A stretch of DNA of 64,000 nucleotides from an uncultured Gammaproteobacteria bacterium (GCA_964453605.1 CAYVOI010000001.1:420095-484094), one strand, 5' to 3'. Numbered from the stretch's first letter, positions 2,985 to 48,850 are shown. Made by a program: numbers and translations. Notes: generated by a model from the sequence alone, not told the origin.

Positions 2985-3028
2985 GTATCCTCATTCTCAA
3001 ATTCTTAAGAATTTGAGAATGAGGATAC
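2985..3028. repeat. Perfect 44-bp palindrome (20-bp arms around central TTAA), AT-rich, between murF and tRNA-Glu
   Basis: gtatcctcattctcaaattc TTAA gaatttgagaatgaggatac; the arms are exact reverse complements. Confidence 0.9.
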
Positions 3029-3124
3029 GCTTCTCGACCTTGATTTATTTTGGTCTTGCGGGTAATCTTAAGTTCGCCCTTGCCCCTTGGTCATGGGCGA
3101 CTGTAGCACCAGTTCCACCCCCGA

Positions 3125-3202
3125 GGCCTCATCGTCTAGCCCGGTCCAGGACGTCTCCCTCTCACGGAGAAAACTGGGGTTCGAATCCCCATGAGGCTAC
3201 CA
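3125..3202 (+). tRNA. tRNA-Glu (anticodon CTC) with encoded CCA
   Basis: Cloverleaf folded by hand: acceptor ggcctca/tgaggct; D-stem gtct/ggac; anticodon stem tctcc/ggaga with loop ctCTCac (U33, A37); T-arm tgggg-TTCGAAT-cccca; discriminator A + CCA. D-arm resembles E. coli tRNA-Glu (tcgtctag...caggac). Confidence 0.85.
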
Positions 3203-4706
3203 ACGTTTCTTTTTGAGCAGGTAGCACTGGAATTAGGCCGAAAATAGGGCACGCTTCTGGGGTTTGAAATCCAGGGTAATTGTAGAAGACATTTTGCGGA
3301 AACAGAATCTTTCGCAAAACCTTTAAGTCAGCGGGGTCAAGAGCCTTCCACTCATGCGGAAGGTTTTTGATATATCCGAATGAGAAATCAATTGCCTTGC
3401 TGACATCCAGGCCATCGTAACCGCTATTGCTTCGGGACATCTGTAGCGCTCGTATCCTTTCCTCAAACTTACCTCGATGTTCCTTAAACTCTTCGTCAGA
3501 GATGAGGTCACCCTTGAGCTTCAGCTCTAGCAGACTGTCTCGTTGCTCACCCAACCTCTTGAGCTCGGTCTCGATCTTGGAGTTCTGTTTAGACACCTCC
3601 GCCAGCTCAGTCTCATAAGCGCAGGCTACGGCCTCTTTTAAAATATCGAGTGTGTCCTCCACTGGCACAAGTTGGGTCAAGAACCCTGTAAATTCGCCCT
3701 CAAAGTCATCCTTCGAAATCGAATGGCGCATTTCGCAGCCAACCTTGCCACAGTTGTAGTAGGCATAGCGTCTGCCAGTCTTGCCCCTTGTCCAACCGCC
3801 AGTTATGGAATGGCCGCAGGCACCGCACTTCACACCACGCAACGGGAAGTCGGGGTTGTTGAGGTTCCGAATGACTTTCTTCGGGTCGCCGCCGGTCAGT
3901 AAAAACTGCACCTTGTCGAACAGCTCCTTGCTCACGATCGGCTCATGCTTGCCTGGCACGCAAATGTCCCACTTAGGAACACTAATCCAACCGCAGTACA
4001 GTGGGTTGGTCAAAATCTTCACTAACAACTGGGGCGAAATGTCTAGACGGAGCGTCGGGTCGAGTTTCATGGCCTTTTGCGCCAGTTCCCGAAACGTATA
4101 AATGCCCTTGGCATACTCCTCAAAAATGAAACGCACAATAGGCTCGCGTTTCCGTTCAGGCACAATGACTTTGTTGTTAGCGGCATCTCTAGTATTAACG
4201 TAACCGAAGTTGGCCTTGAACGCCCAGTTACCAGCGTTCAGCGCTGTCCTCATTCCCTCGGCCGTTCGTTGCGCTCTAATGTTGTTATCGAACTGAGCCA
4301 TGGCAGATAAAATCCCTTCCATCAGTTGTCCCTGCGGGTCGCTTGCTATTGCCTCCGTGGCAGATAAAATTGTTACACCACACTTACGCAATATTACCTT
4401 TAGGGCATAGTGATCCTCCAGATTACGAGCGAAGCGGTCAAGCTTGTAGACGATCACGTTTCCCACCCTCCCCTGATTTTTACCGCAGTAGCGGAGCAAA
4501 TTTTGCAATTCGGTTCGGTCGGCTGTTTTTGCAGATTCACCCTCTTCCCTGAATAGCTTGAGTACTGCCAGCCCTTGCTTGTCGGCATAGGCTCGACAAA
4601 CCTTCTCTTGGCTTTCCAGGCTATAGCCATCAAGCTGATCCTTCGAGGAGACCCTGATGTAGATGACGGCTGTCAAAACTGGTTGGTTGCCTAATTTTGC
4701 TTTCAT
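3162..4706 (-). CDS. Large serine recombinase/integrase (resolvase catalytic domain, recombinase domain, zinc ribbon, coiled coil)
   Basis: N-terminal VIYIRVSSKDQ...SLESQ serine-recombinase catalytic motif; CGACGHS...YYNC zinc ribbon; 514 aa; the C-terminal ...GFEPQFSP is encoded by the reverse complement of the tRNA-Glu T-arm. Confidence 0.85.
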   Translation of the reverse strand: MKAKLGNQPVLTAVIYIRVSSKDQLDGYSLESQEKVCRAYADKQGLAVLKLFREEGESAKTADRTELQNLLRYCGKNQGRVGNVIVYKLDRFARNLEDHYALKVILRKCGVTILSATEAIASDPQGQLMEGILSAMAQFDNNIRAQRTAEGMRTALNAGNWAFKANFGYVNTRDAANNKVIVPERKREPIVRFIFEEYAKGIYTFRELAQKAMKLDPTLRLDISPQLLVKILTNPLYCGWISVPKWDICVPGKHEPIVSKELFDKVQFLLTGGDPKKVIRNLNNPDFPLRGVKCGACGHSITGGWTRGKTGRRYAYYNCGKVGCEMRHSISKDDFEGEFTGFLTQLVPVEDTLDILKEAVACAYETELAEVSKQNSKIETELKRLGEQRDSLLELKLKGDLISDEEFKEHRGKFEERIRALQMSRSNSGYDGLDVSKAIDFSFGYIKNLPHEWKALDPADLKVLRKILFPQNVFYNYPGFQTPEACPIFGLIPVLPAQKETLVASWGFEPQFSP

Positions 4707-4846
4707 AGGTTATGAATGATTAAGGTAAGCTTTGCTCGTTTGGTCAAGCTCGGCAAATTAGAGTCGCAAATCACCGAATGGGGTAATCGGCCACGAAACG
4801 GAGAATAACCACGCCTGGGCCAAATTTACATCCCTAGCGACCATCC

Positions 4847-5059
4847 TCATGGGGGGTTAGAGAGCTGGTCGAGGTAGGCAAGAATCTCAAATCGCTCCTG
4901 TTTGTCATAGTCGTCCTTATCCACCAACTTGTTGAACCAGTAATGAACCACGCGGCTGCTAAAGCGCTGTCCTGTAATGGCGGTGGAAAAACATAAGTAC
5001 GAGCTCCAGCCAGGACGCCTTGTAACTAATTGTTTGTACCTACGCTCTATAGATTTCAT
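4847..5059 (-). CDS. Small excisionase/AlpA-like HTH protein (possible recombination directionality factor)
   Basis: STAITGQRFSSRVVHYW matches the Xis/MerR-type HTH_17 pattern (A-x3-G-x3-S-x-V-x2-W); lies next to the recombinase. Confidence 0.4.
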   Translation of the reverse strand: MKSIERRYKQLVTRRPGWSSYLCFSTAITGQRFSSRVVHYWFNKLVDKDDYDKQERFEILAYLDQLSNPP

Positions 5060-5105
5060 ATGGGTTTAAATAAACACTGGGGATACAGGCTATTACAAGC
5101 AACCA

Positions 5106-5312
5106 CTATAACCCCTCTTTTTTAGGCCTTTCTAAAAATGCAACACCTTGGCCCCGTTCCTTAAGCCAACGACGGACGAGGAAATGGGCCAAATCAAAAA
5201 TTTGCTGCGCGAGCGCATCCAACTCATCGTCGGTCAAGGCAGAATACTTAGCCCTAAGCCACTCCGCTATAATTTGCGCTCTTCTTTCATTAAAAAGCTG
5301 ACCCCGTACCAT
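5106..5312 (-). CDS. Hypothetical small protein (island cargo)
   Basis: 68-aa ORF in an operon-like array with its neighbours; no recognisable motif. Confidence 0.35.
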   Translation of the reverse strand: MVRGQLFNERRAQIIAEWLRAKYSALTDDELDALAQQIFDLAHFLVRRWLKERGQGVAFLERPKKEGL

Positions 5313-5351
5313 GGAGTCAGCATAAAATATGAGTAAACTAGTAAGATGACC

Positions 5352-6158
5352 TTATTTTCCTATATTCCTTCGCCTCATCCTTTCGCGTTGTTTTCTCAGG
5401 CGCATAAGCGCTTTCCTATCCATCGGGTCATTAGGATCTTGTGGCATATATTCAGCGACTAGACTAAGGTCATTTTCTTGTTCCAAGCGCTGCTCTACAA
5501 CTTCCATCACTTTACCTTTTTTAACGACGGCAGCCACGTTGGCACTACTCCTTAACCTCCGAACTTTGTTCACACCACAGCTGATAACTAGCTTTTGAAA
5601 GGCATCCCAAACTTCTTTTTTGAGCTTCGGCACTCTGCCCCTAAACCGAATACCAAAGGCATGACGGAATTCGGCCAGGGCGTACTCCTTATCTTCAGTT
5701 GAGAGAGGAATTTCGTCCAGGTTGCCAGCAATCAACAGCAGGTTTCCCAAGAATGTGGTCGGCAACATTGTACTTAGCACAGGCACGCGGTACACCAGAG
5801 CCGCGGTGTAATTTTCTATTAAAGTTAACGGGAGTTCAAATTTTCGCAGCTCTTCCACCACATCAGCCAATAGTGCGAAATCCTCCTGCTGAGATAATGA
5901 GTGAAACCAGGGTGAGCTATTGTACAAATTTATATCATTGTCCTCAGTGAATTCATAAAAATCTTCCTCAGGCTTCAGGCGAGGAATATGGTGACGTTTC
6001 CTCAGCTTTACCAAGGAAGCTTCCATAGCTCCGGTCTCATTAAGCAGAGGCAGACGGCTTTCAGAGATAGCATACTGTGAACTCACGTAATGCTCAGATA
6101 CCAGCTTGAAGGACATTTGTATCGCTTCGGCGATGGGCGAGGGATTGCTATCTTCCAT
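5352..6158 (-). CDS. Hypothetical protein (island cargo), basic C-terminus
   Basis: 268-aa ORF; a TATAAT box sits ~9 nt upstream of the ATG on the minus strand, so the transcript may be leaderless; no known motif. Confidence 0.5.
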   Translation of the reverse strand: MEDSNPSPIAEAIQMSFKLVSEHYVSSQYAISESRLPLLNETGAMEASLVKLRKRHHIPRLKPEEDFYEFTEDNDINLYNSSPWFHSLSQQEDFALLADVVEELRKFELPLTLIENYTAALVYRVPVLSTMLPTTFLGNLLLIAGNLDEIPLSTEDKEYALAEFRHAFGIRFRGRVPKLKKEVWDAFQKLVISCGVNKVRRLRSSANVAAVVKKGKVMEVVEQRLEQENDLSLVAEYMPQDPNDPMDRKALMRLRKQRERMRRRNIGK

Positions 6159-6252
6159 ATGACTTAATTATAGCGAAAAATGTTGATTTATGTTAATTTA
6201 ATGATACAACTTAATGGCCTAAACTTGGTATTTGCCAGGCATGGCTAAAAGA

Positions 6253-6332
6253 CCCAATGACGATACTGAGCTCTACGTTCAGCAACTCGTCATTGGGCCA
6301 TATCCCGAAAGGGGTATGGGGTTCGAAAGAAC
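6253..6332 (+). other. Structured intergenic element: an 11-bp inverted repeat followed by two adjacent GNRA-tetraloop hairpins
   Basis: cccaatgacga...tcgtcattggg; catatccc-GAAA-ggggtatg; ggttc-GAAA-gaacc. Confidence 0.4.
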
Positions 6333-6407
6333 CTAGCTGGCGTAGGGCTTTGTGTTTTGCCAAGAACCAACTCCAAAATTTCTTTTGTTTTACCTTAAAC
6401 CAAAATT

Positions 6408-6881
6408 ATGAACGCCGCCGAAGAAATTGTGAAATACTGGTATGAACAGCAAGGTTATTTTTGCATGGAATCAATTAAGGTTGGGCGAAGAGAAATCGAC
6501 CTGCTTGCCATAAAGTTAAAAGAGAAAGACAACTCGATTCAGGAGGCGGTTCACGTGGAGGTACAAGTTTCAATCAACTATACAAATTTTAAAGAGACTG
6601 TGAAGCAGATAGCGACCCGCTACGACGGCAAGTTTAACGATAAAAAGGTTCAGGCCTACATCCAGCGACTCATCGGCAAGAGTTACCATAAGATCGAGGT
6701 TAGGGGCAAAATGGCACTGAAAGGCAAGGACATAAGACCTGAATATATAAAATTACGAAAGCGCTCAGGAATCACTGTCATCCCATTTGAAAAAATATTC
6801 AACGAAGTAACACAAAAAATGGGCACCGATCATCAACTCAACCCAATAATCCAGGCCGTGCAGCTAGCCAAGTATCAATAA
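6408..6881 (+). CDS. Hypothetical protein, possibly a PD-(D/E)xK nuclease fold
   Basis: REIDLLAIK ... VHVEVQVS resembles the D...ExK core (Q in place of K); conserved N-terminal Glu; 157 aa. Confidence 0.35.
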   Translation: MNAAEEIVKYWYEQQGYFCMESIKVGRREIDLLAIKLKEKDNSIQEAVHVEVQVSINYTNFKETVKQIATRYDGKFNDKKVQAYIQRLIGKSYHKIEVRGKMALKGKDIRPEYIKLRKRSGITVIPFEKIFNEVTQKMGTDHQLNPIIQAVQLAKYQ

Positions 6882-7082
6882 TAACCACACGCCAGTACTT
6901 ATGTCTCAAACCAAGCTTCCCCGTCACACAGTATACTTTTTCACCATTACGAGCTTTATTCACTCGGATATACCGACCTCTACAACACCTGCCCGCTATA
7001 TAAACTAGGTCATATAGAATAAATCTTTTGTAAACTTACCGCTTTTTAAATTAACTTATAAAAAAGAATTTTATTTTTTAAG

Positions 7083-7110
7083 AAAAATGGCTTATTTTAG
7101 CCATTTTTTT
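7083..7110. terminator. AT-rich hairpin terminator (bidirectional)
   Basis: aaaaatggct-tatttt-agccattttt followed by a T-run. Confidence 0.5.
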
Positions 7111-7175
7111 ATATTTATAACATTCTATAAAACTTAAATAATGTATGTCTAAGAATAGAAATTTTATAAATCCCC

Positions 7176-7204
7176 TTGACAGGCCTTTATAGATTGCCTA
7201 AAAT
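7176..7204 (+). promoter_or_regulatory. Near-consensus sigma70-type promoter upstream of the 7237 ORF
   Basis: TTGACA, 17-bp spacer, TAAAAT. Confidence 0.55.
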
Positions 7205-7236
7205 GATACTGTCTTACAACTTAATCTCATAACTTT

Positions 7237-8037
7237 ATGGGGCTCAGTGACTTAATTGTTGACCAAAGGCAAATCAGCGAAGAAATGATTGAAAACCTAC
7301 TCAAAGGAAATGTTGAGCTAATTAAAGAGGACAGCGGGGTCAGGTTAATGCCCGCAGTTTCAAAATTCACTGCTGCTACCAAAGTCCTCCTCATCTTGGC
7401 AGCTAAAAAGGCTTGGGAAATGATATCGAAAACTCCACACCCAACTACTGCCTCAGAAATTGAAGGTGCCACTGGGCTACCGCTAAACACAATTTACCCA
7501 GTAATGAAAAAATTTAACGACGACCGTTTGGCAATATCGAGCAAAGGGAAGTACAGCATAACAAATAGGGGCATCCTCCAGCTACCCGCTCTAATTGATG
7601 CGGACAAAAATCGCAGTCACACAAATAAGACGAGTAATACGGCTGGCAAAGTGACTCGCAACCGCCCCAGTGGGCGCCCAGATATAATTAAAGCAATTAA
7701 GGAACACCACATGGAGCCTCAATACGTTGAAACCATCCTACCTATTCTGGAAAAGTCCAGGCACAGTGATAAATACTTATTAGCTATCTACATCGCAAAA
7801 GATAAAATGGCAATAGATGGACTAACCTCTAGTGAGATTCAATACTTACTTAACGAGGCCCCGCTCAAATTGCCGAAATTGTACTCTTCAAATATTAGTC
7901 GCGATCTACCAAAGCTCAGGAATTTTACCACACCATATCCAGCTGGAAGTTCCTACGAATACCGCCTTACATCATTGGGAGAGAGGCGCGTCAAAGAGTT
8001 AATCGAAGGTGGAAGTACCAACGTACATCAAGCATAA
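7237..8037 (+). CDS. Hypothetical protein with two winged-helix-like DNA-binding segments
   Basis: ASEIEGATGLPLNTIYPVMKKF...ISSKGKYSITNRG and LTSSEIQYLLNEAPLKL...YRLTSLGERRV look like wHTH units; ends 6 nt before the next ORF. Confidence 0.45.
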   Translation: MGLSDLIVDQRQISEEMIENLLKGNVELIKEDSGVRLMPAVSKFTAATKVLLILAAKKAWEMISKTPHPTTASEIEGATGLPLNTIYPVMKKFNDDRLAISSKGKYSITNRGILQLPALIDADKNRSHTNKTSNTAGKVTRNRPSGRPDIIKAIKEHHMEPQYVETILPILEKSRHSDKYLLAIYIAKDKMAIDGLTSSEIQYLLNEAPLKLPKLYSSNISRDLPKLRNFTTPYPAGSSYEYRLTSLGERRVKELIEGGSTNVHQA

Positions 8038-8043
8038 TTCTAT

Positions 8044-8745
8044 ATGCCAGACTTTATTCAAGATACAGAAGCTCTCATCTCTAACCTATCTCAAAGGTCG
8101 GGAAAAGAAATTTCCGAAAAAGCCTTACTAACACAGGCTCGGGCTTGGGTTAAAAATTATAGCCACACACTCGATACTGTTTTTAGTGGCCCAAACGACC
8201 TCGATAAACTCCACTACATCGGCCGTACTGTCCATAACCAACGTTTAGATAAAAGTAGCTGGCTAAAAAAATTAAAAGCACTTAAAAAGAAAATGGAAAT
8301 ATTAGAGCAAACAAAAGAATCCTCACTGGGTATCTGGTCGTTCGATCCTAATAAACCGTTTACCGCCTACCAGACCCTACGAGAATTTTTTGCTAATGCA
8401 CAAAACAGGGTACTGATTTATGATGGTTACGTTGAGGAAAAAACCCTAGAAATATTAGGTTCATTGCCTAAATCTGCATCAATAAGAATTTTAACAAATA
8501 ATACATATGGAAACTTTACAAGAGAGTTGAGGCTATTTGAAAAAGAACACTCTATAGAGGTTAAAAAATTATCAACCGTGCATGATAGGTTTTTTATAAT
8601 TGATGGAAAATGTTACTTATCAGGGACATCTCTACACTCCCTTGGAGGGCAAAAATCATCCACCCTATGCTCCGTGGATAGTCATATAATGCAAATTTTC
8701 GAAAAACGATTTGAACAAGATTGGGCTCCCGCTACTAAAGTCTAG
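8044..8745 (+). CDS. Hypothetical protein with a phospholipase-D/HKD-like variant motif (putative nuclease or phosphodiesterase fold)
   Basis: VHDRFFIIDGKCYLSGTSL fits H-x-(K/R)-x4-D-x6-G-(S/T), the PLD superfamily signature with K replaced by R; one copy, implying a dimeric Nuc/BfiI-like arrangement. Confidence 0.4.
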   Translation: MPDFIQDTEALISNLSQRSGKEISEKALLTQARAWVKNYSHTLDTVFSGPNDLDKLHYIGRTVHNQRLDKSSWLKKLKALKKKMEILEQTKESSLGIWSFDPNKPFTAYQTLREFFANAQNRVLIYDGYVEEKTLEILGSLPKSASIRILTNNTYGNFTRELRLFEKEHSIEVKKLSTVHDRFFIIDGKCYLSGTSLHSLGGQKSSTLCSVDSHIMQIFEKRFEQDWAPATKV

Positions 8746-8913
8746 TTTGATAAACCGAAAGGGAGTAACCCAAAACGGCGATAAGAACGAACCCTGGGGC
8801 TTTGCGGTGAAATATTTACAGTATTTCCAAACTGAAAAAGTCTAGAAATTAACTCAATCAACGGTTTTGTATTTTTTCGACATAGGGCTACCACTTCAGT
8901 AGTTTTCTTCTGC

Positions 8914-8930
8914 GGGGTCACGGTGACCCC
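8914..8930. repeat. GC-rich palindrome ggggtcac-g-gtgacccc
   Basis: 8-bp inverted repeat with a 1-nt centre, in an intergenic region. Confidence 0.6.
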
Positions 8931-9006
8931 CTGGGCGGACAAATCCCGATAGTGGTACCAAAAGGGATAAAATTCAAACTACTCTATATTAGGGTAGTTT
9001 TTATGC

Positions 9007-9035
9007 TTGACACGGTTAGCATGATAGCTTAAGAT
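9007..9035 (+). promoter_or_regulatory. Candidate sigma70-type promoter for the 9091/9290 ORFs
   Basis: TTGACA, 17-bp spacer, TAAGAT. Confidence 0.35.
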
Positions 9036-9090
9036 TGGGCTGATTAAAAACGTCGTTCCTTTCCATCAACTATTATAGAGGAGTTTAATT

Positions 9091-9264
9091 ATGGACAAAC
9101 TAGATCTCTCGGCAGAGGGTAGAAAAATTTTTGAAGATGCCCTGAACGAGGCGTACGAGGCCGGGTTTCAAAACGCCACGTTCACCATGGGTTCGGTTCA
9201 TGAACTCGCAACCTCACAGGAAGATGAGGTAAAAAAAATCGTTGATGAATTCGTCAGTATATAA
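9091..9264 (+). CDS. Small hypothetical protein (57 aa), absent from the ORF track because it is under 60 aa
   Basis: GGAG RBS 7 nt upstream of the ATG; MDKLDLSAEGRKIFEDALNEAYEAGF... Confidence 0.45.
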   Translation: MDKLDLSAEGRKIFEDALNEAYEAGFQNATFTMGSVHELATSQEDEVKKIVDEFVSI

Positions 9265-9289
9265 CCAACGTCATTTCTGGAGAAGGCTC

Positions 9290-9505
9290 ATGGATATCCC
9301 TAAGGACAAAAGTTACCCAGCTGATTCGGTGCAGTGCAACGGCTGTGGTGGGCATGGTTGCACCACCTGCAACAACAAGGGCTGGCTTACACCCAGCAAC
9401 CATCCAAAGGGCCGTAGGTGCGAACGGGAAGGTTGTGGCAACCCAATTCCACCAAGCCAGGTAGCGATCTACTGCACTAACGAGTGCGCAGCGTTGGACG
9501 CCTGA
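9290..9505 (+). CDS. Cys-rich zinc-finger/ribbon-like small protein; start placed at the internal ATG that has a strong RBS
   Basis: GGAGAAGG RBS before ATG 9290; CNGCGGHGCTTC...C..C..C cysteine clusters. Confidence 0.45.
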   Translation: MDIPKDKSYPADSVQCNGCGGHGCTTCNNKGWLTPSNHPKGRRCEREGCGNPIPPSQVAIYCTNECAALDA

Positions 9506-9639
9506 ACACAACCCTCTTCTTCTACCAAAATGGTAGGGGAAGAGGGTATTTATTTTGGCTGGTAGCTTACGCGGTAGATAGGGCCAGCTTTGTCGTCCGA
9601 AATGTAGATAGCACCGCCGGGCTCAGCACGTATAGCACA

Positions 9640-9666
9640 CAGCGGCCACCTGGGTGGTGGCCGCTG
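9640..9666. terminator. GC-rich hairpin (10-bp stem) between convergent genes
   Basis: cagcggccac-ctgggtg-gtggccgctg followed by gttgttggg. Confidence 0.45.
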
Positions 9667-9682
9667 TGAGTTGTTGGGCTAA

Positions 9683-11677
9683 CTAGTCGTCGTGCTTGCC
9701 GTTGCCCTTACCTTCTGACTTGTCGTGGTTCCCCTGGCTGTCTTGGTTACTGAGGCCCTGGGTACCAGACTTGCCATGTTCGTTATCGTTTTCACCCTGG
9801 CCCTGTCCGTTCTCTGACTTGTGCCCCTGCGGTTTAGCTGAAACCGTTAAGCCAGTGAGCGATTGCAAGCTGATGATGTTCTTGAACTTTTTACCCTTGG
9901 CGTGCCCGACTGCCCTGCCCTTAAACACCTTGAGGTTACAGTTAGCAGCGAGGTACACCGTGGTAGAGCCAGTTACCTGGTACAGGCGACCGTTGATAAG
10001 GCCGTTGGCACACACCTTACCCTGACGGTTCTCGTTCTCGCCTGAGAAGCTACCGGTTATCGCATGGCTGCCGGTGGCGTTGTTACCAGCTGCATCTTTA
10101 ATGACTGAGCCAGCCATAGTTACCGTGTCACCAACTGTTACCGTAGGCAGGGAAGTGCCGGCTGACAGGGTAATGGTGAGCATGGTGCCGCCGAGGTCCC
10201 AGGCCGCGCTGCCAATGTGTCCAGCGCCATCGAGCCAGCTGTGGCTGTTATTTAGCATGAGAGTTGAGTTGATGTTACTGTCCGTAATAGTGGGCTTGTT
10301 GGTAGCCTCACCAAAGGTGAGCACCACGCTGTCACCAGCTTCTGTAGCGTTCGTGCCGCCAGTGTTCTGGGCTACTGCGCTTGTAAGCACCGGGCCAGTA
10401 GTGTCAGTGGTAGTGAAGGTGCCGGTGATAGCGCTGCTGCCTGTGGCGCTGTTGCCACTCGCATCCTGCACCACTGAACCAGCCATAGTTACGGTGTCAC
10501 CCACAGCTACGGTAGGAACAGAGGTTGCACCGCTCAGTGTGATGGTAATGATAGTGCCAGCCGCATTCCATACCGCTGAACCAATATGGCCAGCCCCATC
10601 GAGCCAGCTGTGGCTGTTGTTCAAGGTGAAGGTAGTGTTGATGTTGCTGTCGGTAATAGCAGGCTTGTTGGTAGCCTCGTTAAACGTTACTGCTACGCTG
10701 TCGCCCGCTTCCTTGGCAATGGTACCGCCAGTGTTAGCTGCTACCGCGCTCGTGAGCACTGGGCCGGTGACATCACTGGTGAAGCTGCCGGTGATAGCCA
10801 TGCTGCCGCTAGCGCTGTTACCAGAGCCGTCGGTAATAACGCTGCCCATAACCGTTACGGTGTCGCCGGGCTCCACCGTAGGTAGGCTACCGTTGCCGCT
10901 TAGCGTGATGGTGTAAGCAGTACCAGCGGCGTTCCAGCTCGCTGACATGAGCACACCCAAGCCGTCGAGGAACGAGTGTCCGCTGGAGAGACCAAACACA
11001 CTCGGCAGGCTTCCAACTGTTATGACTGGTTTGTTGGTAGCTTCATTGAACGTCAACACCACGCTGTCACCAGCTTCCTTAGCACTGGTGCCGCCAGTGT
11101 TCATGGCTACAGCGCTCGTAAGGTGTGGGCCAGTAGTGTCGGCCGTGATCATGGCTGTGGTAACCGCCGTAGTGGTTGGAGAGTTGGCAGAGGTGACAAT
11201 GGCGTCGGTGGCGAGCTGGGCCGTGAAACCGTCAGCCGTGGCAGTGTCGCTCCAGGTTGAGCCGGTGGCCACCGTCACAAAGAACGTGGCACCAGTACCA
11301 ATGGTGTTGTTGCTGCCCGTGGTAATAGTCGTAGCTGAATCGACGTTCACCGTGCTCTGCGAACCAGCCAGCAAGTCTGAGCCGGCGTTAAAGCTGCCAT
11401 CGCCGTTGTCTTTATATACGGCGACCGAGGCGAGGTCAGAGCCTGCCAGCGTACTGCCGCTCACCTTGGTGAGGGTGACGTTGACACTAGAGAGCGTTTC
11501 ACCAGCGTCTTGTCCCAAAGAAAACTTAAACAGCGCCAGAGGAGCACTTGAGGCGGGTGCGACCTGTGGCGAGGTAACCAGGGAAACTGGTCCGGTGGTA
11601 ACCGTGACCGTGGCGTTGGCTACTGGCACAAACAGCGCCAGCTGCAACAGCGCCACCAGAGATGAAAATTTCTTCAT
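9683..11677 (-). CDS. Secreted or cell-surface protein with three tandem ~120-aa repeat domains and a Gly/Gln/Lys/His-rich C-terminal tail
   Basis: Signal peptide MKKFSSLVALLQLALFVPVANA; three repeats beginning TGPVLTSAVA.NTGGT...; the reverse-strand ORFs the track lists inside it are artefacts. Confidence 0.7.
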   Translation of the reverse strand: MKKFSSLVALLQLALFVPVANATVTVTTGPVSLVTSPQVAPASSAPLALFKFSLGQDAGETLSSVNVTLTKVSGSTLAGSDLASVAVYKDNGDGSFNAGSDLLAGSQSTVNVDSATTITTGSNNTIGTGATFFVTVATGSTWSDTATADGFTAQLATDAIVTSANSPTTTAVTTAMITADTTGPHLTSAVAMNTGGTSAKEAGDSVVLTFNEATNKPVITVGSLPSVFGLSSGHSFLDGLGVLMSASWNAAGTAYTITLSGNGSLPTVEPGDTVTVMGSVITDGSGNSASGSMAITGSFTSDVTGPVLTSAVAANTGGTIAKEAGDSVAVTFNEATNKPAITDSNINTTFTLNNSHSWLDGAGHIGSAVWNAAGTIITITLSGATSVPTVAVGDTVTMAGSVVQDASGNSATGSSAITGTFTTTDTTGPVLTSAVAQNTGGTNATEAGDSVVLTFGEATNKPTITDSNINSTLMLNNSHSWLDGAGHIGSAAWDLGGTMLTITLSAGTSLPTVTVGDTVTMAGSVIKDAAGNNATGSHAITGSFSGENENRQGKVCANGLINGRLYQVTGSTTVYLAANCNLKVFKGRAVGHAKGKKFKNIISLQSLTGLTVSAKPQGHKSENGQGQGENDNEHGKSGTQGLSNQDSQGNHDKSEGKGNGKHDD
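10034..11122 (-). repeat. Three tandem ~360-bp coding repeats inside the surface protein gene
   Basis: The protein-level repeats at aa 186-305, 306-427 and 428-548 map to these coordinates. Confidence 0.7.
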
Positions 11678-11821
11678 ACAAGCATGGGTTAATAGTTATA
11701 CTTAGATATACCCAGGCGTACCCGGGTACACACCTAATATATACGTATAATTTTAGGGTTTGTTTCGCTGTTACCTAAGAAAACCCCTCGTAATTTTACG
11801 CAGGTTTTCTTAGGTTTGGTG

Positions 11822-13303
11822 TTACTTTTTAATGGCTGGAGGTGCAGGTAGTTTACCTATTAGCTCGCGCACTGCTGCCACAAAATCCGGGAAGTTGTAG
11901 TAGCTCAAGAGCTCGCTTGGCCAGTTCTTGTCCGTGAGCTTAACCTGCGGCTCGACACCGCGGCCTTCGATAGCTTGGCCGTCGTTCCTGACGGTCACGC
12001 TGTGCACCAAGAGCATGGAGTAGGTTTGTGTAGGGTCAATAACTGTTTGGAGAGGTACCACGCTTTCCACCGTACCCCAGCCTTTTGATTTCGTACCAAC
12101 CAGCACGCCAATGTGGTACTTCTTTAACGTATCAGCAATAACCTCGGCTGAGGACTGCGTGTTCTCATCGATTAACACCACTACCTGTTTGAACCGACTG
12201 AGGCTCGGGAGCCAGGCAACTTTGGTTTTGTACGGTGTGGTGTCACCCTGGTGGTAGAATTCGTAGGCGTAGGCGTCGGGACCTAAGAAGAGCCCGAGGA
12301 AGTAGGGGAGTATGTCGATATCACCGCCGATGTTGCCGCGGATATCTAGTACCAGGTACGTAAGCTCCGCGTGTTTAGCAAAACTGTCTGCTACCTGTGC
12401 TAGCTCTTGCACGGTAGGTGGGGAGATGCGCGTGATTTTGAGAGCAAGCGTTTTTCTCTGTACGATGTGCCCTGTCACCGTTGGCTCCACGCCGCTCTTG
12501 TCGTACTGCGTTCTAGCTTGAGCAGTACCCACCGCGCTGTAGGCACGCCCTACCTGGGCCAACTTGTCGGCGGCATCAGTAGCCTTGCTCTGTTTTAGCT
12601 CGCTTGATCTCTGCTCAAACGCTTTAGTGATTTCAGCCGAGGTAGCAGTTTTACTCACGCCTAAGGTGTGGTAGAGGTCGGTGGTAGGGTCAGTGTTGTT
12701 GACCTCGTTCTGGAGCGCTTGCTCGTTCTTGGTGCTGTAGAGGCGGCTCCGGCTGAACGGGTTTAGGTTGGCCAGCACAACGTCGCCTAAGCTTACCGCC
12801 AGAGTTTTTTGTTCAGCCTCACTCATAGGCTGCATGGTTTTGGTGAGCAATGCCTCAAGCCCAACCCTTGTTGGTGGGTTGAGTTCCACCGTACTATTCG
12901 TAAGTTTTGCCAAGCCCCGCTGGTAGATACCGCCTAAGGTGGCTTCATCTATTTTGTCCCAGTAGCGCTGTTTAACCTGGTCAAAAATTTCTAGCAAGAA
13001 ATCAACTCGGCTGTTGCCGGTCGCAGCTGGCGTAGTCGGTTGTGCCGTAGCCGGTTTAGTAGGTTGCTCGTGCGGGAGGTAGTAGGCAGCCGCGGCACCA
13101 CCGGCTAATAGGACCCCGAGGACGATTACGTACCTCAGGCGCCACCGTTTTTTGGGTTCAACTGGAGTCGACCAGAGCACGTGCGGTGGTGTATGTGTAG
13201 CTTCACGCGACGGGGCAGTTGTTTTTCCTGGGTTCAAGAAGTTTGGGCTGTGGCCATTTGTGTATTCCATGGTAGGTATATAGTATAGCATTTCTGCTGC
13301 CAC
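11822..13303 (-). CDS. S41-family (C-terminal processing) peptidase, membrane-anchored, with a J-domain-like segment lacking HPD
   Basis: VVLIDENTQSSAEVIADTLKKYHIGVLVGTKSKGWGT matches the S41 catalytic region; N-terminal TM helix; DLYHTLGVSKTATSAEITKAF...YDKSG is J-like but has no HPD. Confidence 0.7.
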   Translation of the reverse strand: MAAEMLYYIPTMEYTNGHSPNFLNPGKTTAPSREATHTPPHVLWSTPVEPKKRWRLRYVIVLGVLLAGGAAAAYYLPHEQPTKPATAQPTTPAATGNSRVDFLLEIFDQVKQRYWDKIDEATLGGIYQRGLAKLTNSTVELNPPTRVGLEALLTKTMQPMSEAEQKTLAVSLGDVVLANLNPFSRSRLYSTKNEQALQNEVNNTDPTTDLYHTLGVSKTATSAEITKAFEQRSSELKQSKATDAADKLAQVGRAYSAVGTAQARTQYDKSGVEPTVTGHIVQRKTLALKITRISPPTVQELAQVADSFAKHAELTYLVLDIRGNIGGDIDILPYFLGLFLGPDAYAYEFYHQGDTTPYKTKVAWLPSLSRFKQVVVLIDENTQSSAEVIADTLKKYHIGVLVGTKSKGWGTVESVVPLQTVIDPTQTYSMLLVHSVTVRNDGQAIEGRGVEPQVKLTDKNWPSELLSYYNFPDFVAAVRELIGKLPAPPAIKK

Positions 13304-13359
13304 GTCCTGCGTACGTTTTCTGCTAGAAGCCTCAAGGGGCCCTGTGCTAGAATGTATCT

Positions 13360-13803
13360 ATGAATAAATATCTTGGTTTATGGCTCGGTGGATTGTTCGT
13401 CATAGCCGTGGTAGCAGGAGTAGTGTGGTACACTTTGCCGCGTACCGTGGTAGCACCACCTGTATCTACCAACCAGCCACCACCAAGTGAGGTGCAGGTG
13501 TTTGAGCCTACGGCTAACGCCGTAGTTGTGAGCCCGCTGGCGGTTTACGGCCGCGCGCCCGGAAATTGGTTCTTTGAAGCGTCGCTCCCGGTGGTCCTGA
13601 CTGACGAAACCGGTAAGGAGCTCGCGCACCAGCCAGCTCAGGCCCAGAGCGACTGGATGGTGACCACACCAGTTGAGTTTCGCACCAGCTTGACCTTTAC
13701 ACCGCCTGCCAGTGGCACCGGGTACCTGGTAGTGAAGAACGACAACCCATCAGGTTTGCCACAGCTTGATAAGAGCTACCAGGTTAAGGTTCGCTTCAAA
13801 TGA
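13360..13803 (+). CDS. Hypothetical membrane-anchored protein
   Basis: N-terminal TM helix; 147 aa; no motif. Confidence 0.5.
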   Translation: MNKYLGLWLGGLFVIAVVAGVVWYTLPRTVVAPPVSTNQPPPSEVQVFEPTANAVVVSPLAVYGRAPGNWFFEASLPVVLTDETGKELAHQPAQAQSDWMVTTPVEFRTSLTFTPPASGTGYLVVKNDNPSGLPQLDKSYQVKVRFK

Positions 13804-14936
13804 TACACTTTAAAGTTCTGAAGCAGTCGCGCCGGAGCCGCGCGCGACTGGGGCTTTTAGAAACTCCGCACGGTGTAGTGGAGACACCGTGCTTGGTGCC
13901 GGTGGCTACCCAGGCGGTGGTTAAGACCTTAACTTCCGAGCAAGTAGCAGCGACCGGAGCCAAGCTCCTCATTGCTAACACCTTTCACCTGCACCTTCGC
14001 CCAGGTGAGCGGGTAGTGAAAGCTGCCGGAGGCTTACACACGTTTGCTAACTGGCCGCACTCGTTCATGACCGACTCTGGGGGCTTTCAGGTGTTCTCCC
14101 TCGGGTTCGGGCGCGATTTCAACCACAGCAAAATAACCCGGGAACCTGCTCGCCCAAGCATACGGCACGGGCAGCAACCCAAGCTCATAAAGATTACTGA
14201 GCGTGGGGTGTGGTTTACCTCACCAATCGACGGGCGTAAGTTGTTCCTAGGGCCTAAGGAATCCATTCGTATCCAAGAAGCCTTGGGCGCTGACATCATA
14301 TTTGCTTTTGACGAATGCACTTCACCACTCGCCAACCAAACCTACACCGCCAACTCGCTCACACGTACGCACACCTGGGCTAAGGAGTGTTTAAGGCTTA
14401 AGCGGACCCGCCAAGCGCTCTACGGCATTGTACAGGGCGGGAAGTTTAAGTCGCTCCGCATTGAGAGTGCGCGGACTTTAGGCTCGCTGCCCTTTGACGG
14501 CTACGGCATTGGTGGTGAATTTGGTAGCGATAAAAAAATTATGGCGAACATGATAGGCTGGGTCAACGCCGAACTGCCTCCGGAGAGACCTCGGCACCTT
14601 CTCGGAATTGGTTTTCCTGAAGATATTGCACCTATTATCAAAGCCGGGGTGGATACGTTTGACTGCATTGTGCCCACCAACCAAGCGCGCCATGGTATGG
14701 CTTTCACCAGCACCGGCAAACTTGACTTGGCACAAACCCGGTACCTTACAGACAAAGCGCCGCTCGACCGTACCTGCACCTGCTTAACCTGCCAGGGGTA
14801 CGAGCGCAGGTACATTGCGCACCTGGTTCGCGCGCACGAGGTTACTGCCATGTCGCTCCTCACCCAGCACAACCTCACCTGGTTTACCACCTACGTGAGA
14901 GAGCTGCGCCAGAAGATTAAACAAGGAAAACTGTGA
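13800..14936 (+). CDS. tgt: Queuine tRNA-ribosyltransferase (tRNA-guanine transglycosylase)
   Basis: LLETPHGVVETP, LIANTFHLHLRPG and the zinc site CTCLTCQGYERRYIAHL. Confidence 0.9.
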   Translation: MIHFKVLKQSRRSRARLGLLETPHGVVETPCLVPVATQAVVKTLTSEQVAATGAKLLIANTFHLHLRPGERVVKAAGGLHTFANWPHSFMTDSGGFQVFSLGFGRDFNHSKITREPARPSIRHGQQPKLIKITERGVWFTSPIDGRKLFLGPKESIRIQEALGADIIFAFDECTSPLANQTYTANSLTRTHTWAKECLRLKRTRQALYGIVQGGKFKSLRIESARTLGSLPFDGYGIGGEFGSDKKIMANMIGWVNAELPPERPRHLLGIGFPEDIAPIIKAGVDTFDCIVPTNQARHGMAFTSTGKLDLAQTRYLTDKAPLDRTCTCLTCQGYERRYIAHLVRAHEVTAMSLLTQHNLTWFTTYVRELRQKIKQGKL

Positions 14937-15973
14937 GCCGTACGTTCAAGCACCTACTTGCCAGCTACGACTATCCGGTAAACCCGAAGCTCATTGCCCA
15001 GGTGCCACCTCGCCCACGGGACAGCGCTCGGCTTTTGGTATACAACCGTGCCAGTGGCCAGGTGCACCACGACCGCTTTACCAATCTCCATAAGTACCTG
15101 CCACCGCGGGCGGTGCTCGTCTTTAACCAGACCAAGGTACTACCAGCGAGACTTGCCGTGCAGAAACCAAGTGGCGGCCAGGTTAAGCTGCTCTACCTGG
15201 GCAGCCGCGGCAAACAGGTCGAGGTACTAGCTGAGAAAAGGCTAGAGCAGGGGAGTGAGCTGACTTTGCAAGGTCGTTACCATTTTACCGTTACCCGCGT
15301 AGCTGGTAATCACTACTGGTTGAAACCGAAATTCGCTTCGCCGGCATTTTTAAGTTTGTTAGCTCGTTACGGCGAAACACCACTCCCGCCGTACCTCAAG
15401 CACTCGCCCCTGAGCGAAGCCCGCCGCAGGGCAGAGTACCAAACCATATTCGCCAAGCAGTCTGGTTCAGTGGCCGCACCAACGGCAGCCCTTCACTTCA
15501 CCAAACGTTTACTCCAAAAACTCAAGGCCGGGGGTTTTGGTGTAGAATTTGTGACGCTTCATGTTTCTCTTGGTACCTTTGCGCCGCTCACGGAAAGCCA
15601 GGTACGCAGGGGCAAGCTTCACGCTGAGTACTATGAGGTAAGCCAGAGTACAGCACGGGCACTTACACAAGCCAAAGCACAAGGCAGGCCGATTATCGCC
15701 GTGGGTACCACTGTTGTGCGTACCTTAGAGTCCGCTGCTACACCACAGGGTCACCTTACCAAGCGTACCGGAGCAACACAGTTGTTCATCAGCCCCGGCT
15801 ACCGTTTTAAGTTTATCAGCGGGCTCATTACCAACTTCCACGTGCCGCGTTCAAGCCTCCTCATGTTGGTAGCAGCACTTACCACCCGCCTCAAGCTCTT
15901 AAAGCTCTACGCCCTGGCCCAACGCCACAAGTACAGACTATTTTCATTTGGCGATGGCATGCTTATTACCTAA
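14933..15973 (+). CDS. queA: S-adenosylmethionine:tRNA ribosyltransferase-isomerase
   Basis: LASYDYPVNPKLIAQVPPRPRDSARLLVY is the QueA N-terminal signature; overlaps the tgt stop. Confidence 0.85.
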   Translation: MSRTFKHLLASYDYPVNPKLIAQVPPRPRDSARLLVYNRASGQVHHDRFTNLHKYLPPRAVLVFNQTKVLPARLAVQKPSGGQVKLLYLGSRGKQVEVLAEKRLEQGSELTLQGRYHFTVTRVAGNHYWLKPKFASPAFLSLLARYGETPLPPYLKHSPLSEARRRAEYQTIFAKQSGSVAAPTAALHFTKRLLQKLKAGGFGVEFVTLHVSLGTFAPLTESQVRRGKLHAEYYEVSQSTARALTQAKAQGRPIIAVGTTVVRTLESAATPQGHLTKRTGATQLFISPGYRFKFISGLITNFHVPRSSLLMLVAALTTRLKLLKLYALAQRHKYRLFSFGDGMLIT

Positions 15974-15978
15974 GCTTT

Positions 15979-16248
15979 ATGCGTAAACACCTCAACATCA
16001 GGGTCTACGGTGTAGTGCAGGGTACAGGCTACCGTGCTAGTGCACGAGAGCGTGCACGACACTTAAAGCTTACAGGTTTTGTGCGCAACGAGCCTGATGG
16101 TTCAGTCTACCTTGAGGTCGAGGGGAGCGAGGCGGACCTGGCCAAGTTTCAAAAGTGGTGTAGCAAGGGCCCATGGTTTGCGCGGGTGACGAAGTTGGAG
16201 GCAGAGCCTGGTGAACTTCAGCACTACGTAGGGTTTACCGTAGCCTAG
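15979..16248 (+). CDS. acyP: Acylphosphatase
   Basis: VYGVVQGTGYRASARERARHLKLTGFVRNEPDGSV, 89 aa. Confidence 0.85.
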   Translation: MRKHLNIRVYGVVQGTGYRASARERARHLKLTGFVRNEPDGSVYLEVEGSEADLAKFQKWCSKGPWFARVTKLEAEPGELQHYVGFTVA

Positions 16249-16330
16249 GGGTTCACTGCAGGTTCATATCATAGGTGGAACATTCTGTTAGCCTAAGCGT
16301 TATAGTTTAGGCGAAGGGAGGTGAACACCT

Positions 16331-16468
16331 ATGCATGCATCAACAAGAATGAACTTGGCGGTGGCAGTTGTAGCGGTGGGGTTGGTTTTGGCGGGCACTG
16401 TGTTCGCAGCCAATCCGTCGGGAACGGGCCAGCCAAGCCAAGCGTGTGGTGCGGAAGGGCCACTATGA
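16331..16468 (+). CDS. Small signal-peptide ORF (45 aa), overlapped ATGA-style by a second 50-aa ORF (16465..16617); may be one frameshifted gene
   Basis: Strong RBS GGAGGTG before the ATG; MHASTRMNLAVAVVAVGLVLAGTVFA|AN resembles a Sec signal with AXA cleavage. Confidence 0.35.
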   Translation: MHASTRMNLAVAVVAVGLVLAGTVFAANPSGTGQPSQACGAEGPL

Positions 16469-16681
16469 GCCCACCAGGTTTTAGTACTGATGGTTTTGCC
16501 AATGCTGAAACACATTACGCGGGGAGCGGCGGTACGGCTTCCGCACAACATGCCCACAGCACTCACGCTGTGTCACAGTACGACGTAGCCTGTTTCCAGT
16601 ACACCTCGAACCACTAGTACTGGTGAGGCAAGTTAAACAAACAAGCACCGCCGAAACAGCGGTGCTTGTTGCTAGTACGTT

Positions 16682-17290
16682 CTAGTGGAGTATGTAGTTA
16701 AGCTTAGTTTGCCAGCTGCTTACCGCTGGTCCGCTGCAGCTTTCAGGGTCCGGTGTGGTGTTGGCTTTTTCAGCTGAGCTGCTGATACTCTTGGCTTGGG
16801 TTTGGAGCTTAGCTTTATCACTAGTCCCGTAACTTACGAGTAGCTTATCTAAGCTTTTGATAACAACACCGGCCGGGTTATCCATTGTCTGACCGTTCAA
16901 GATGTAGGTGAGTTTGTGGTTTGCGTCGCTCAGGTAGAGTTTGCTGCGGGTTTGTAGGTAGTTCGGGCCAATGCCCCAGCCCAGGTTTTGGAAAAACTCC
17001 CCCCAAGTTACAGCTGGCGCCTCCACGTGGATCAGGTCATTCACCTTATCGTGCATATGGGCGCGAGCCAAAGGGGTGTTAGCTTTGTCAGCACTACAAC
17101 CAGCCTCTTCTTCGTAGTAGGTGTCAGCGGCAAAAGGCTCACGGTTGCCGTTGATGTAGACCGCGAAGTTAGCGTGGTAGTGCACGGCCGTACTGTGGTA
17201 GGCAGCCAGTCGCCAGGCGGCCAGTGCACCAGCGCCAACGAGCGCGCCAAGTATAAGTAGGGATAGTGTTTTCATGACCTTAGTATACAC
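16682..17290 (-). CDS. Hypothetical secreted protein
   Basis: Signal peptide MYTKVMKTLSLLILGALVGAGALA; 202 aa. Confidence 0.55.
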   Translation of the reverse strand: MYTKVMKTLSLLILGALVGAGALAAWRLAAYHSTAVHYHANFAVYINGNREPFAADTYYEEEAGCSADKANTPLARAHMHDKVNDLIHVEAPAVTWGEFFQNLGWGIGPNYLQTRSKLYLSDANHKLTYILNGQTMDNPAGVVIKSLDKLLVSYGTSDKAKLQTQAKSISSSAEKANTTPDPESCSGPAVSSWQTKLNYILH

Positions 17291-32970: not shown

Positions 32971-33005
32971 AGCCCGAGTCGCAAGACTCGGGCTTTCTTT
33001 TTTTG
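32971..33005 (+). terminator. Rho-independent terminator (bidirectional with cysS)
   Basis: agcccgagtc-gcaa-gactcgggct followed by TTTCTTTTTTT. Confidence 0.7.
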
Positions 33006-33008
33006 GCC

Positions 33009-34367: not shown

Positions 34368-34476
34368 AGTGATTGGTTAGTATTGTAACGCGATTTTTGA
34401 ACAATTGACAATTTTAGGGGTTAGGCTAAGGTGAAGCCAAAACATCACTAGAACTGTTAACACAACAGGAGAAAAA

Positions 34477-47194: not shown

Positions 47195-47219
47195 CTTATT
47201 AGTTTAATAAAATATCACC

Positions 47220-47579: not shown

Positions 47580-47621
47580 CCACCAAAGATTTCGAAACTT
47601 CCCAATTTCCCACCTGGTGCC
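47571..47621 (+). repeat. Direct repeat copy 1: orphan copy of the korB start region (51 bp, 49 identical)
   Basis: atatgGTaaccaccaaagatttcgaaacttcccaatttcccacctggtgcc against copy 2 at 48851..48901 (atatgCCaacc...). Confidence 0.9.
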
Positions 47622-47687
47622 TTGAGCACCCGAGCCGGCCCATGCATCCGAAGGAAATCATAAATAACCATTAACTAGGATAAATGT

Positions 47688-48833: not shown

Positions 48834-48850
48834 TCCGATTGAATGATCTT

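Follow-up and report, generated by a model that had tools for sequence, protein, structure and literature searches.

Why should the last codons of a large serine recombinase gene be spelled by a tRNA gene on the opposite strand? The question is raised by a stretch of 64,000 nt from an uncultured Gammaproteobacteria bacterium (GCA_964453605.1, CAYVOI010000001.1:420095-484094), analysed here at its full length and hereafter called the window, in which a tRNA-Glu gene is overlapped by such a recombinase gene and followed by DNA of unusual composition. tRNA targets are conventionally credited to tyrosine integrases. A preliminary description of this DNA had proposed a mobile island, integrated site-specifically with its attachment site in the 3′ part of the tRNA-Glu gene. 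The present analysis makes it likely that a 5.76-kb island was integrated at the 3′ end of tRNA-Glu(CTC) by its own large serine recombinase. The whole integrated element, as delimited by its composition, a distal tRNA-like repeat and the junction blocks, measures 5,758 bp (3203-8960).

A Complete Large Serine Recombinase Gene Overlaps the tRNA-Glu Gene

The gene of tRNA-Glu(CTC), with its CCA end encoded, lies at 3125-3202 on the plus strand and was the sole tRNA gene found by ARAGORN in the 64-kb window. The Rfam tRNA model scored it at 57.6 bits, and every pair of its acceptor and T stems is formed. It would be the target of integration and the side of the left junction (attL); the right junction is called attR, and the sites of the element and of the host from which the two junctions would derive are called attP and attB.

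On the minus strand, positions 3162-4706 encode a protein of 514 aa. Its Pfam matches were Resolvase (PF00239, 3e-34, residues 13-161), Recombinase (PF07508, 7e-12) and Zn_ribbon_recom (PF13408), the last with 25.6 bits barely above the cut-off of 25.3. The protein also matched PHROG 95 ‘integrase’ at 9e-80, and in the PDB it matched integrase domains of TP901-1 and A118, with 1e-6 for the C-terminal domain of the A118 integrase. In an alignment with 48 homologues, the columns of the catalytic Ser20 and of R18, R64, R91 and R94 are invariant, and the open reading frame (ORF) is of full length. Judged by these matches, the protein is a complete large serine recombinase with the three-domain architecture, as had been proposed, and not the fragment of a small resolvase. 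The best NCBIfam match was CcrB; the scores of 109 bits for CcrB, 66 for CcrA and 50 for CcrC, against NCBIfam cut-offs of 900, 700 and 900, did not identify it as a recombinase of the staphylococcal cassette chromosome (SCC). Among 50,697 phage records, the identity to any serine integrase was at most about 30%.

The integrase gene and the tRNA-Glu gene share 41 nt (3162-3202) on opposite strands. The final integrase codons (TTG GTA GCC TCA TGG GGA TTC GAA CCC CAG TTT TCT CCG TGA), which are translated into LVASWGFEPQFSP*, lie antisense to the tRNA, in a stretch that starts at its CCA end, runs to the anticodon loop and takes in the last 13 codons plus the stop. The overlap of 41 nt with a complete tRNA-Glu gene had already been described, and both of its coordinates were re-derived from ARAGORN and the ORF call. 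That the recombinase ends on the reverse complement of the tRNA was likewise borne out, with the antisense reaching the anticodon loop. The stop codon TGA (3162-3164) is the antisense of anticodon bases 2-3 and the following A (TCA).

The Overlap Recurs Throughout the Recombinase Clade

At least 1,872 homologues of the recombinase were found at E<=1e-20. Almost every one of the best 120 has a tail of the form ...LV(A/T)xxG(I/F/V)EPxxx, and the pattern ...LVxPxG(I/F)EP... arises because the antisense of ACCA and of the acceptor and T arms is translated. Eighty metagenomic homologue loci (L093-L172) were sorted by tail and tRNA overlap. In 44 of them, the recombinase gene runs into a complete tRNA gene encoded opposite to it, namely 33 tRNA-Glu, seven tRNA-Ala(GGC), three tRNA-Lys(CTT) and one tRNA-Met. 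In eight more loci (e.g., L094, L103, L110, L120, and L136) the tail is tRNA-like and the contig ends less than 60 nt past the integrase stop. Another 11 carry the tail without scoring as an overlap with a complete tRNA, most of them beside a half-tRNA and a few reading through a whole tRNA, while the tail is absent in 13 and the gene runs off the contig end in four. The median overlap is 41 nt, and exactly 41 nt are shared in 22 of the 44 cases, probably because the stop codon is antisense to anticodon bases 2-3 and the next base. The overlap in the window therefore has the most frequent value in the clade, and by this comparison it is a family trait and not a peculiarity of one locus.

Several related islands also carry part of a tRNA at their far ends. 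In-register repeats of the tRNA 3′ end were found in L146 (22 nt), L095 (17 nt), L147 (17 nt), L106 (15 nt) and L150 (14 nt), and the repeat of L176 is at least 23 nt long and continues into the terminator. Half-tRNA blocks of about 45-51 nt, centred on the T-loop, abut the integrases of L127, L119, L131 and L152. The earlier expectation that a serine integrase leaves only a 2-bp crossover, and hence no repeat, did not hold for this family, since several islands end distally in a repeat of 14-23 nt or a half-tRNA of 45-51 nt. For the closest relatives of the integrase (L173, L174, and L175), the distal-repeat matches were at chance level or the contig was too short. Only five loci were found on viral contigs; one of them has a prophage-type junction with tRNA-Arg, and none showed an unambiguous free attP.

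The half-tRNA loci were also considered as circles. This was rejected, since L119, L131, L152/L153 and L126 have no terminal overlaps and L118/L127 are chromosomal tandem arrays. The L127/L118 array (11400-16900) consists of tRNA-Lys, 5.3 kb with an Rhs fragment and an IS3 transposase, the 45-nt half-tRNA and the integrase. The sequence flanking the distal repeat of L146 (about 3000-3060) still resembles a decayed integrase tail. L173 contains the closest homologue (60% identity), and a 117-aa ORF with a resolvase domain (9643-9996) lies directly upstream of this full-length integrase gene; it may be a truncated second recombinase.

The Island Is Compositionally Foreign and Ends at About 8960

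The island DNA is foreign in composition. In 500-nt windows, the GC content was 33-48% over about 3000-9250 compared to 54-62% in the flanks. For 3203-8940 it was 43.9%, while host windows of 5.7 kb had 53.4 ± 1.6%, and the tetranucleotide correlation with the host was 0.18 compared to 0.89 ± 0.05 for host windows. The GC values agreed with the low GC noted at the outset. The shift is sharp at both island ends and stops at about 8940-8960, and 8961-9682 is indistinguishable from the host.

A tRNA-Glu 3′-half look-alike was found where the shift stops, at 8919-8960 on the plus strand, which would be the attR side. It was recognised by its likeness to the tRNA-Glu of L083, the closest relative of the host. 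Positions 8941-8960 (AAATCCCGATAGTGGTACCA) agree with the 3′ end of that tRNA in 19 of 20 bases and with the resident tRNA in 14-15 of 20. When the 3′ 20-mer of the L083 tRNA-Glu was used as query, it found 8941-8960 with one mismatch, where 0.01 hits are expected by chance at <=3 mismatches. With the 3′ end of the resident tRNA as query, no repeat was found in the island at <=3 mismatches over 27 nt, and the local alignment of the resident tRNA was at the level of chance (best score 22, shuffles 21.3 ± 2.3). The distal remnant was thus significant only with the allele of the relative as query. Resident and distal copies align in register as AATCCC....TACCAA with 15 of 20 identities, and a weaker likeness to tRNA reaches back to TCACGG at 8919, the position of the anticodon loop.

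Fifteen bases past the distal repeat lies a hairpin with a T run (AAACTAC...GTAGTTT, 8976-9000, plus strand). It resembles the terminators that follow tRNA-Glu in L083 and L181, with p about 0.01 for the likeness to L083, and by this likeness it is the displaced terminator of the tRNA and part of the host DNA. Moreover, the 8 nt past the distal repeat (AAAGGGAT) are identical to the 8 nt that follow ACCA in L180, as expected of host flank. The distal repeat, the displaced terminator and the host-like composition of 8961-9682 together place the end of the element at about 8960. The island of the preliminary description is therefore retained, with its length reduced from 6.5 kb to about 5.76 kb. 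Of the two limits suggested there, the tRNA-3′-like stretch near 8940 was substantiated and the hairpin at 9640-9666 was not: the hairpins at 9511-9547 and 9641-9667 lie in DNA of host-like composition and are ordinary terminators of host-like genes. An 11-mer resembling the T arm (TGGGGTTCGAA, 6317-6327) was considered as a second att remnant and discarded, since it is the last hairpin of an RNA described below. Between the displaced terminator and the surface-protein gene of the right flank, 9091-9505 contain a 57-aa gene and an 87-aa cysteine-rich, zinc-ribbon-like gene of host-like composition; homologues of the two proteins were absent from every relative that was fetched.

Related Genomes Carry the Site Without an Integrase

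The genomes nearest to the window are Patescibacteria, to which the host chromosome is assigned. The left flank encodes a penicillin-binding protein and a Mur ligase, and the right flank encodes a repeat-rich surface protein, an S41 peptidase, a Gmad2-domain protein and Tgt; both are chromosomal. The Mur ligase gene followed by tRNA-Glu(CTC) without an integrase was found in the distant relatives L003, L004 and L006 and in the closest relatives available, L083/L084, L085-L087, L180 and L181. Identity of the Mur ligase to that of the window is 75% in L083/L084, 64% in L085-L087, 62% in L180 and 59% in L181, so the comparison with empty tRNA-Glu sites that had been proposed gave integrase-free examples at 59-75%. 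The same site holds a tRNA-overlapping recombinase of the same family in two other Patescibacteria genomes, L009 (32% identity) and L174 (52%). In L085, an orthologue of the surface protein (70% identity) adjoins Gmad2 and Tgt, which indicates that the host right flank begins by 9683 at the latest.

The stretch from the tRNA to the surface-protein gene differs in each genome, with DinB, an S24 peptidase and GSDH in L083 and a cold-shock domain (CSD) protein and an ABC-F protein in L085. Since this content is different in every genome, the locus behind tRNA-Glu is, on the genomes compared, an insertion hot spot. Right after tRNA-Glu, L003 (11803-14479) has 2.7 kb more than its close relative L004 (7124); this DNA has no integrase and contains a 198-aa ORF and the gene of a 652-aa secreted trypsin-like protease. 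The integrase-free relatives, the foreign composition and the family-wide overlap all support a site-specific island with its att site in the 3′ part of tRNA-Glu.

Position of the Crossover

The left junction region (3184-3203, plus strand) shares two blocks in register with the right junction, namely AATCCC (3184-3189), from the T-loop and T-stem, and TACCAA (3198-3203), which runs from the discriminator base through the CCA end to the next base. Serine integrases need a dinucleotide common to both sites for the crossover, so the exchange should have taken place within AATCCC or TACCAA. The length of the element is 5,758 bp regardless of which of them holds the crossover.

The alleles of the tRNA bear on this choice. 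An allele of the form GGTCCCA...CCCCA TGGGACT is common to L085, L180 and L181, and the tRNA of the window is two compensated base pairs away from it. When L083, L085, L180, L181 and the window were compared, the form GCCGCTA...CCCGA TAGCGGT was found in L083 only. The Mur ligases group the window with L083 (75%) and L085 with L180 (79%), with L181 apart. The resident 3′ half pairs perfectly with the resident 5′ half, while with the distal copy three pairs of the acceptor stem and one of the T stem would be mismatched. The allele of the resident tRNA-Glu fits vertical inheritance within the host lineage. On the simplest reading of the allele comparison and the stem pairing, the resident tRNA was inherited vertically and the distal copy belongs to the element, of which it would form the tRNA-like arm of attP. 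The wobble pair G1:U72 was considered as the mark of a chimeric tRNA and dismissed, because the same pair occurs in L083 and L085 and the same bases occur in L180 and L181.

We therefore lean slightly toward a crossover at the extreme 3′ end of the tRNA, in the shared TACCAA, a preference that comes from sequence comparison. In this clade, attP would take in the 3′-terminal part of the integrase gene and imitate the 3′ part of a tRNA. The element would thus bring its own look-alike of the tRNA-Glu 3′ end, and recombination between this look-alike and the real tRNA end would leave imperfect direct repeats, with the look-alike ending up at the far end (8919-8960). After integration, the integrase frame would run antisense into the tRNA and stop in the anticodon loop. 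The host tRNA would remain wholly host-encoded, and only its terminator would be shifted 5.8 kb downstream to 8976-9000. This model predicts attP as CCCGATAGTGGTACCAACGTTTCTTTTTGAGC and attB as CCCCATGAGGCTACCAAAAGGGATAAAATTC, with junction reads of ...CCCGATAGTGGTACCAACGTTTC and ...CATGAGGCTACCAAAAGGGAT, respectively, and an empty site in which the resident tRNA allele is followed directly by AAAGGGAT or CAAACTACTC. The insertion was presumably catalysed by the recombinase of the island, and the island may still be mobile today.

A crossover in the T-loop (AATCCC, 3184-3189 and 8942-8947), by the same recombinase and with the same island, is possible and seems to us rather doubtful. The element would then supply a new tRNA 3′ end, and 8942-8960 would be the displaced host original, as in the classical tRNA-restoring design of tyrosine integrases. 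The predicted sites would be attP CTGGGCGGACAAATCCCCATGAGGCTACCAACG, containing GGGCGGACAAATCCCCATGAGGCTACCAACG, and attB CTGGGGTTCGAATCCCGATAGTGGTACCAAAAGG, containing GGGGTTCGAATCCCGATAGTGGTACCAAAAGGG, and the tRNA of the empty site would end in CCCGATAGTGGTACCA. This position would keep a whole attB of roughly 40 bp inside conserved tRNA sequence and make use of the dyad symmetry that the T-arm offers. Furthermore, the identity between attL and attR begins in the T-loop for L146, L147, L095, L106 and the window, and the T-arm-centred half-tRNA blocks of L127, L119, L131 and L152 (45-51 nt) have the typical size of a serine-integrase attP. On the other hand, the identity in L150 and L176 starts only at positions 63-66. 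The distal copy, which should then be the host's own, carries the allele of L083 type, which arose on another branch; with the host 5′ half, four pairs of its T-stem and acceptor strands are mismatched, whereas the 3′ end on the integrase side pairs perfectly and matches the allele of the lineage. Five compensatory changes or an additional recombination event would be required to rescue a T-loop crossover.

Several points weigh against the integration of a mobile element with a crossover at the CCA end. Such a crossover places half of attB in a non-conserved flank, which is awkward given that such an enzyme normally recognises about 40 bp, and the half-tRNA blocks of L127, L119, L131 and L152, being centred on the T-loop, would be better suited to a crossover there. 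A scan of the reconstructed attP for dyad symmetry favoured no centre, with 10-11 of 24 positions at several of them. No recombination directionality factor was identified among the island genes in Pfam, PHROG, PADLOC and NCBIfam. The closest relatives have just 75% Mur-ligase identity, so the absence of the island from them would be informative at about the genus level.

As reconstructed, the excised form would encode an integrase of 522 aa with the tail ...GFVRPGGHRDPAEENY under both crossover models, compared to 514 aa with the tail ...GFEPQFSP in the integrated form.

Island Gene Content and LOOT RNA

Upstream of the integrase gene, a 70-aa protein (MKSIERR...WFNKLVDKDDY) is encoded at 4847-5059 on the minus strand. 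It is conserved in integrative elements of Patescibacteria: all organism names attached to its 35 homologues are of Patescibacteria type, and in L120, L144, L128 and L176 homologues occupy the same place upstream of related serine integrases. The predicted structure is a four-helix bundle (predicted local distance difference test score, pLDDT, of 91) with no PDB match better than E = 1.6. The gene had been called excisionase-like with a helix-turn-helix (HTH). This remained unproven, since the protein gave no match in Pfam, PHROG, NCBIfam or PADLOC and no structural match, its fold was not recognised as an HTH of the Xis/MerR type or a winged helix, and a separate HTH_17 gene stands beside a homologue in L178. 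The protein is a candidate regulator or directionality factor by its position and conservation. In L178 (10001-12800), the homologue precedes the genes of an HTH_17 excisionase and a tyrosine integrase, next to tRNA-Gly, tRNA-Leu and tmRNA, with a type I restriction system as cargo; this arrangement indicates that the 70-aa protein is common to serine- and tyrosine-integrase islands in Patescibacteria.

The next two genes on the minus strand encode a 68-aa helical protein (5106-5312) and a 268-aa protein of no detectable family (5352-6158), which may be cargo or the first gene of an operon on the integrase side. When the ORFs from the 70-aa gene through the 87-aa ORF were compared with a first set of fetched loci by tblastn, homologues were found for the 70-aa protein only. 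A phmmer search against the ORFs upstream of integrases added weak homologues of the 68-aa protein, in the same position upstream of related integrases.

An RNA of the LOOT family (RF03000) was detected by its covariance model at 6216-6334 on the plus strand, divergent from the integrase module. In the whole-window Rfam scan it scored 87.5 bits against a gathering score of 46.4 and covered model positions 1-121 of 121. Of 21 related recombinase loci that were scanned, 12 also contain LOOT above the gathering score (L094, L096, L097, L100, L101, L106, L133, L144, L173, L174, L175, and L176), with support at the sequence level. All 12 copies are located on the side of the island, at 0.6-4 kb upstream from the integrase, and 10 of them are on the opposite strand. 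A role as guide RNA was considered and rejected, since LOOT showed no tRNA-specific complementarity: the longest shared or complementary words with cognate and non-cognate tRNAs were 6.9 and 6.4 nt in sense and 6.3 and 6.8 nt in antisense orientation. No functional study of LOOT was found in the literature, most subscription journals being outside the coverage.

Three more genes follow on the plus strand. A 157-aa protein (6408-6881) has no match in the four profile collections named above, and its single-sequence structure model was unusable (pLDDT 49.6). A 266-aa protein (7237-8037), regarded as cargo, gave only sub-threshold matches of winged-helix type. The third, also cargo, is a 233-aa phospholipase D (PLD)-like protein (8044-8745), which matched the PADLOC group PDC-S05 (PDLC04879, 2.3e-21; PDLC04869, 3.7e-21) and, with 19.8 bits under the cut-off of 27, the Pfam family PLDc_2; these matches make it a candidate defence gene. 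Except for this protein, the remaining ORFs are lineage-specific as far as the homology searches reach. The conserved backbone of the island would thus consist of the integrase, the 70-aa and 68-aa proteins and the divergent LOOT RNA, and the rest would be cargo.

The gene content bears on whether the island can still move. It may be a fixed relic that was integrated once by the mechanism described above, lost its excision and is now a small defence or cargo locus, which is compatible with the same origin and which we hold to be a tentative possibility. Genes for replication, transfer and packaging are all absent by the four profile collections, as is a recognisable directionality factor. Left of 8941 the distal tRNA-like arm has degenerated, relatives that are decayed or in tandem occur in L127 and L146, and in one sample (SRR12313480) the contig of the island ran unbranched from the host right flank across the junction into the tRNA. 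Against decay, the integrase ORF is of full length and keeps all invariant catalytic positions, no part of the conserved backbone (small proteins and LOOT RNA) has been lost, and the distal arm is well preserved over its inner 20 nt.

That no element was ever integrated, and that a resident invertase or resolvase of a hypervariable host locus overlaps the tRNA by accident, is very improbable: the content between the tRNA and the surface protein does differ in every relative (L083, L085, and the integrase-free L003 with its 2.7 kb over L004), but dozens of unrelated genomes and several tRNA species show the overlap in the same frame, several islands are bounded by in-register tRNA-end repeats, the recombinase has integrase-type C-terminal domains, and the composition changes sharply at both ends.

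Other Features of the Window

A perfect 44-nt palindrome (22-nt arms, loopless) lies directly after the Mur ligase gene at 2985-3028 and is probably a terminator. In the Logan sample that contains this genome, the two sides of the tRNA fall on different contigs, L001 (end about 3014, within the palindrome) and L002 (end 3145). The break at 3145 was considered as a sign of excision and set aside, as it coincides with neither predicted junction.

In the right flank, the surface protein (664 aa, 9683-11677, minus strand) contains three tandem modules of ~123 aa, and the corresponding DNA repeats (10046-11165) have a period of 369/366 nt and 67-72% identity. The S41 peptidase (11822-13303, minus strand) contains an internal DnaJ (J) domain, an unusual fusion, and its gene is kept in L003 and L004. 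A bacterial class A RNase P RNA was found at 52860-53298 on the minus strand (219.9 bits). Other GC dips, at 46500-49500 and 33000-34500 (45-47% compared to about 54%), could be further acquired segments.

Significance and Comparison With Known Systems

The island of the window is ordinary in size and cargo. Of more interest are the link to LOOT and the apparent rule of the clade, by which a serine integrase is paired with a tRNA target, its gene has a fixed overlap and attP mimics the tRNA. The clade to which the recombinase of the window belongs is very large and mostly uncultivated, and its serine integrases are built around tRNA genes, chiefly tRNA-Glu. The tRNA antisense accounts for the curious conserved tails (“...LVAPRGIEP...”) of hundreds of proteins in the databases, and the tRNA overlap also accounts for the frequent assembly breaks just past the integrase genes of the clade. 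The overlap provides a simple rule for locating small defence islands in Patescibacteria, whose mobile elements are poorly charted, and LOOT, an orphan Rfam RNA, gains a genomic home in the backbone of these islands. For genome engineering, the clade offers integrases that naturally target short, universally conserved sequences.

One half of attP would be a near-copy of the tRNA-end half of attB, so attL would resemble attP and attR would resemble attB. It is conceivable, though we think it quite unlikely, that a switch based on the tail or on LOOT senses the state of integration and replaces a classical directionality factor. The likeness of attL and attR to attP and attB would fall outside the standard model of serine-integrase directionality. 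The integrase would swap its tail on integration, from the element-encoded 522 aa to the tRNA-antisense 514 aa, and the integrated gene would also meet convergent transcription of the tRNA, which, together with LOOT, could report the integration state.

The integrases of the A118, TP901-1, Bxb1 and phiC31 type likewise have Resolvase, Recombinase and zinc-ribbon domains and a gene at the edge of their own element. They differ in that they use protein-coding or intergenic sites and share only a 2-bp core, whereas here a tRNA gene is targeted, the integrase gene extends with its 3′ end into attP, and 14-23 nt or more are shared in register by the junctions. Serine-integrase islands at tRNA genes have been counted before. 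In the largest published survey that was found, such use is treated as rare: fourteen of 297 serine-integrase islands lay at t(m)RNA genes and were called previously unreported and in need of experimental proof (Mageeney et al., 2020; PMC7192596), and a large serine recombinase was present in 27 of 937 Prochlorococcus elements, comprising tycheposons and related cryptic elements (Hackl et al.). This TIGER survey and the tycheposon study give counts only, whereas the clade examined here comprises at least 1,872 homologues with tRNA targets, mostly tRNA-Glu, with a 41-nt gene overlap and a conserved backbone of RNA and small proteins. A description of tRNA-Glu-targeting serine integrases was not found in the literature, with most subscription journals outside the coverage.

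The layout is familiar from P4-like and Islander-type islands of tyrosine integrases. In these, too, the integrase abuts the 3′ end of a tRNA and a repeat of this end lies distally, and they are likewise small, carry cargo and defence genes and form tandem or decayed arrays at one tRNA. The differences are that the enzyme here is a serine recombinase and that the distal repeat is apparently the element's own and not the displaced end of the host gene. SCC elements such as SCCmec are inserted at the 3′ end of rlmH by the Ccr serine recombinases, which leaves direct repeats. The likeness extends to the kind of enzyme, the insertion at the very 3′ end of a housekeeping gene that is conserved and stays functional, and the direct repeats. 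The island of the window differs from SCC in having one recombinase instead of a CcrA/CcrB pair, a tRNA as target, a host of another phylum and a CcrB score of 109 bits compared to 900. By analogy, SCCmec would nevertheless be its nearest mechanistic counterpart.

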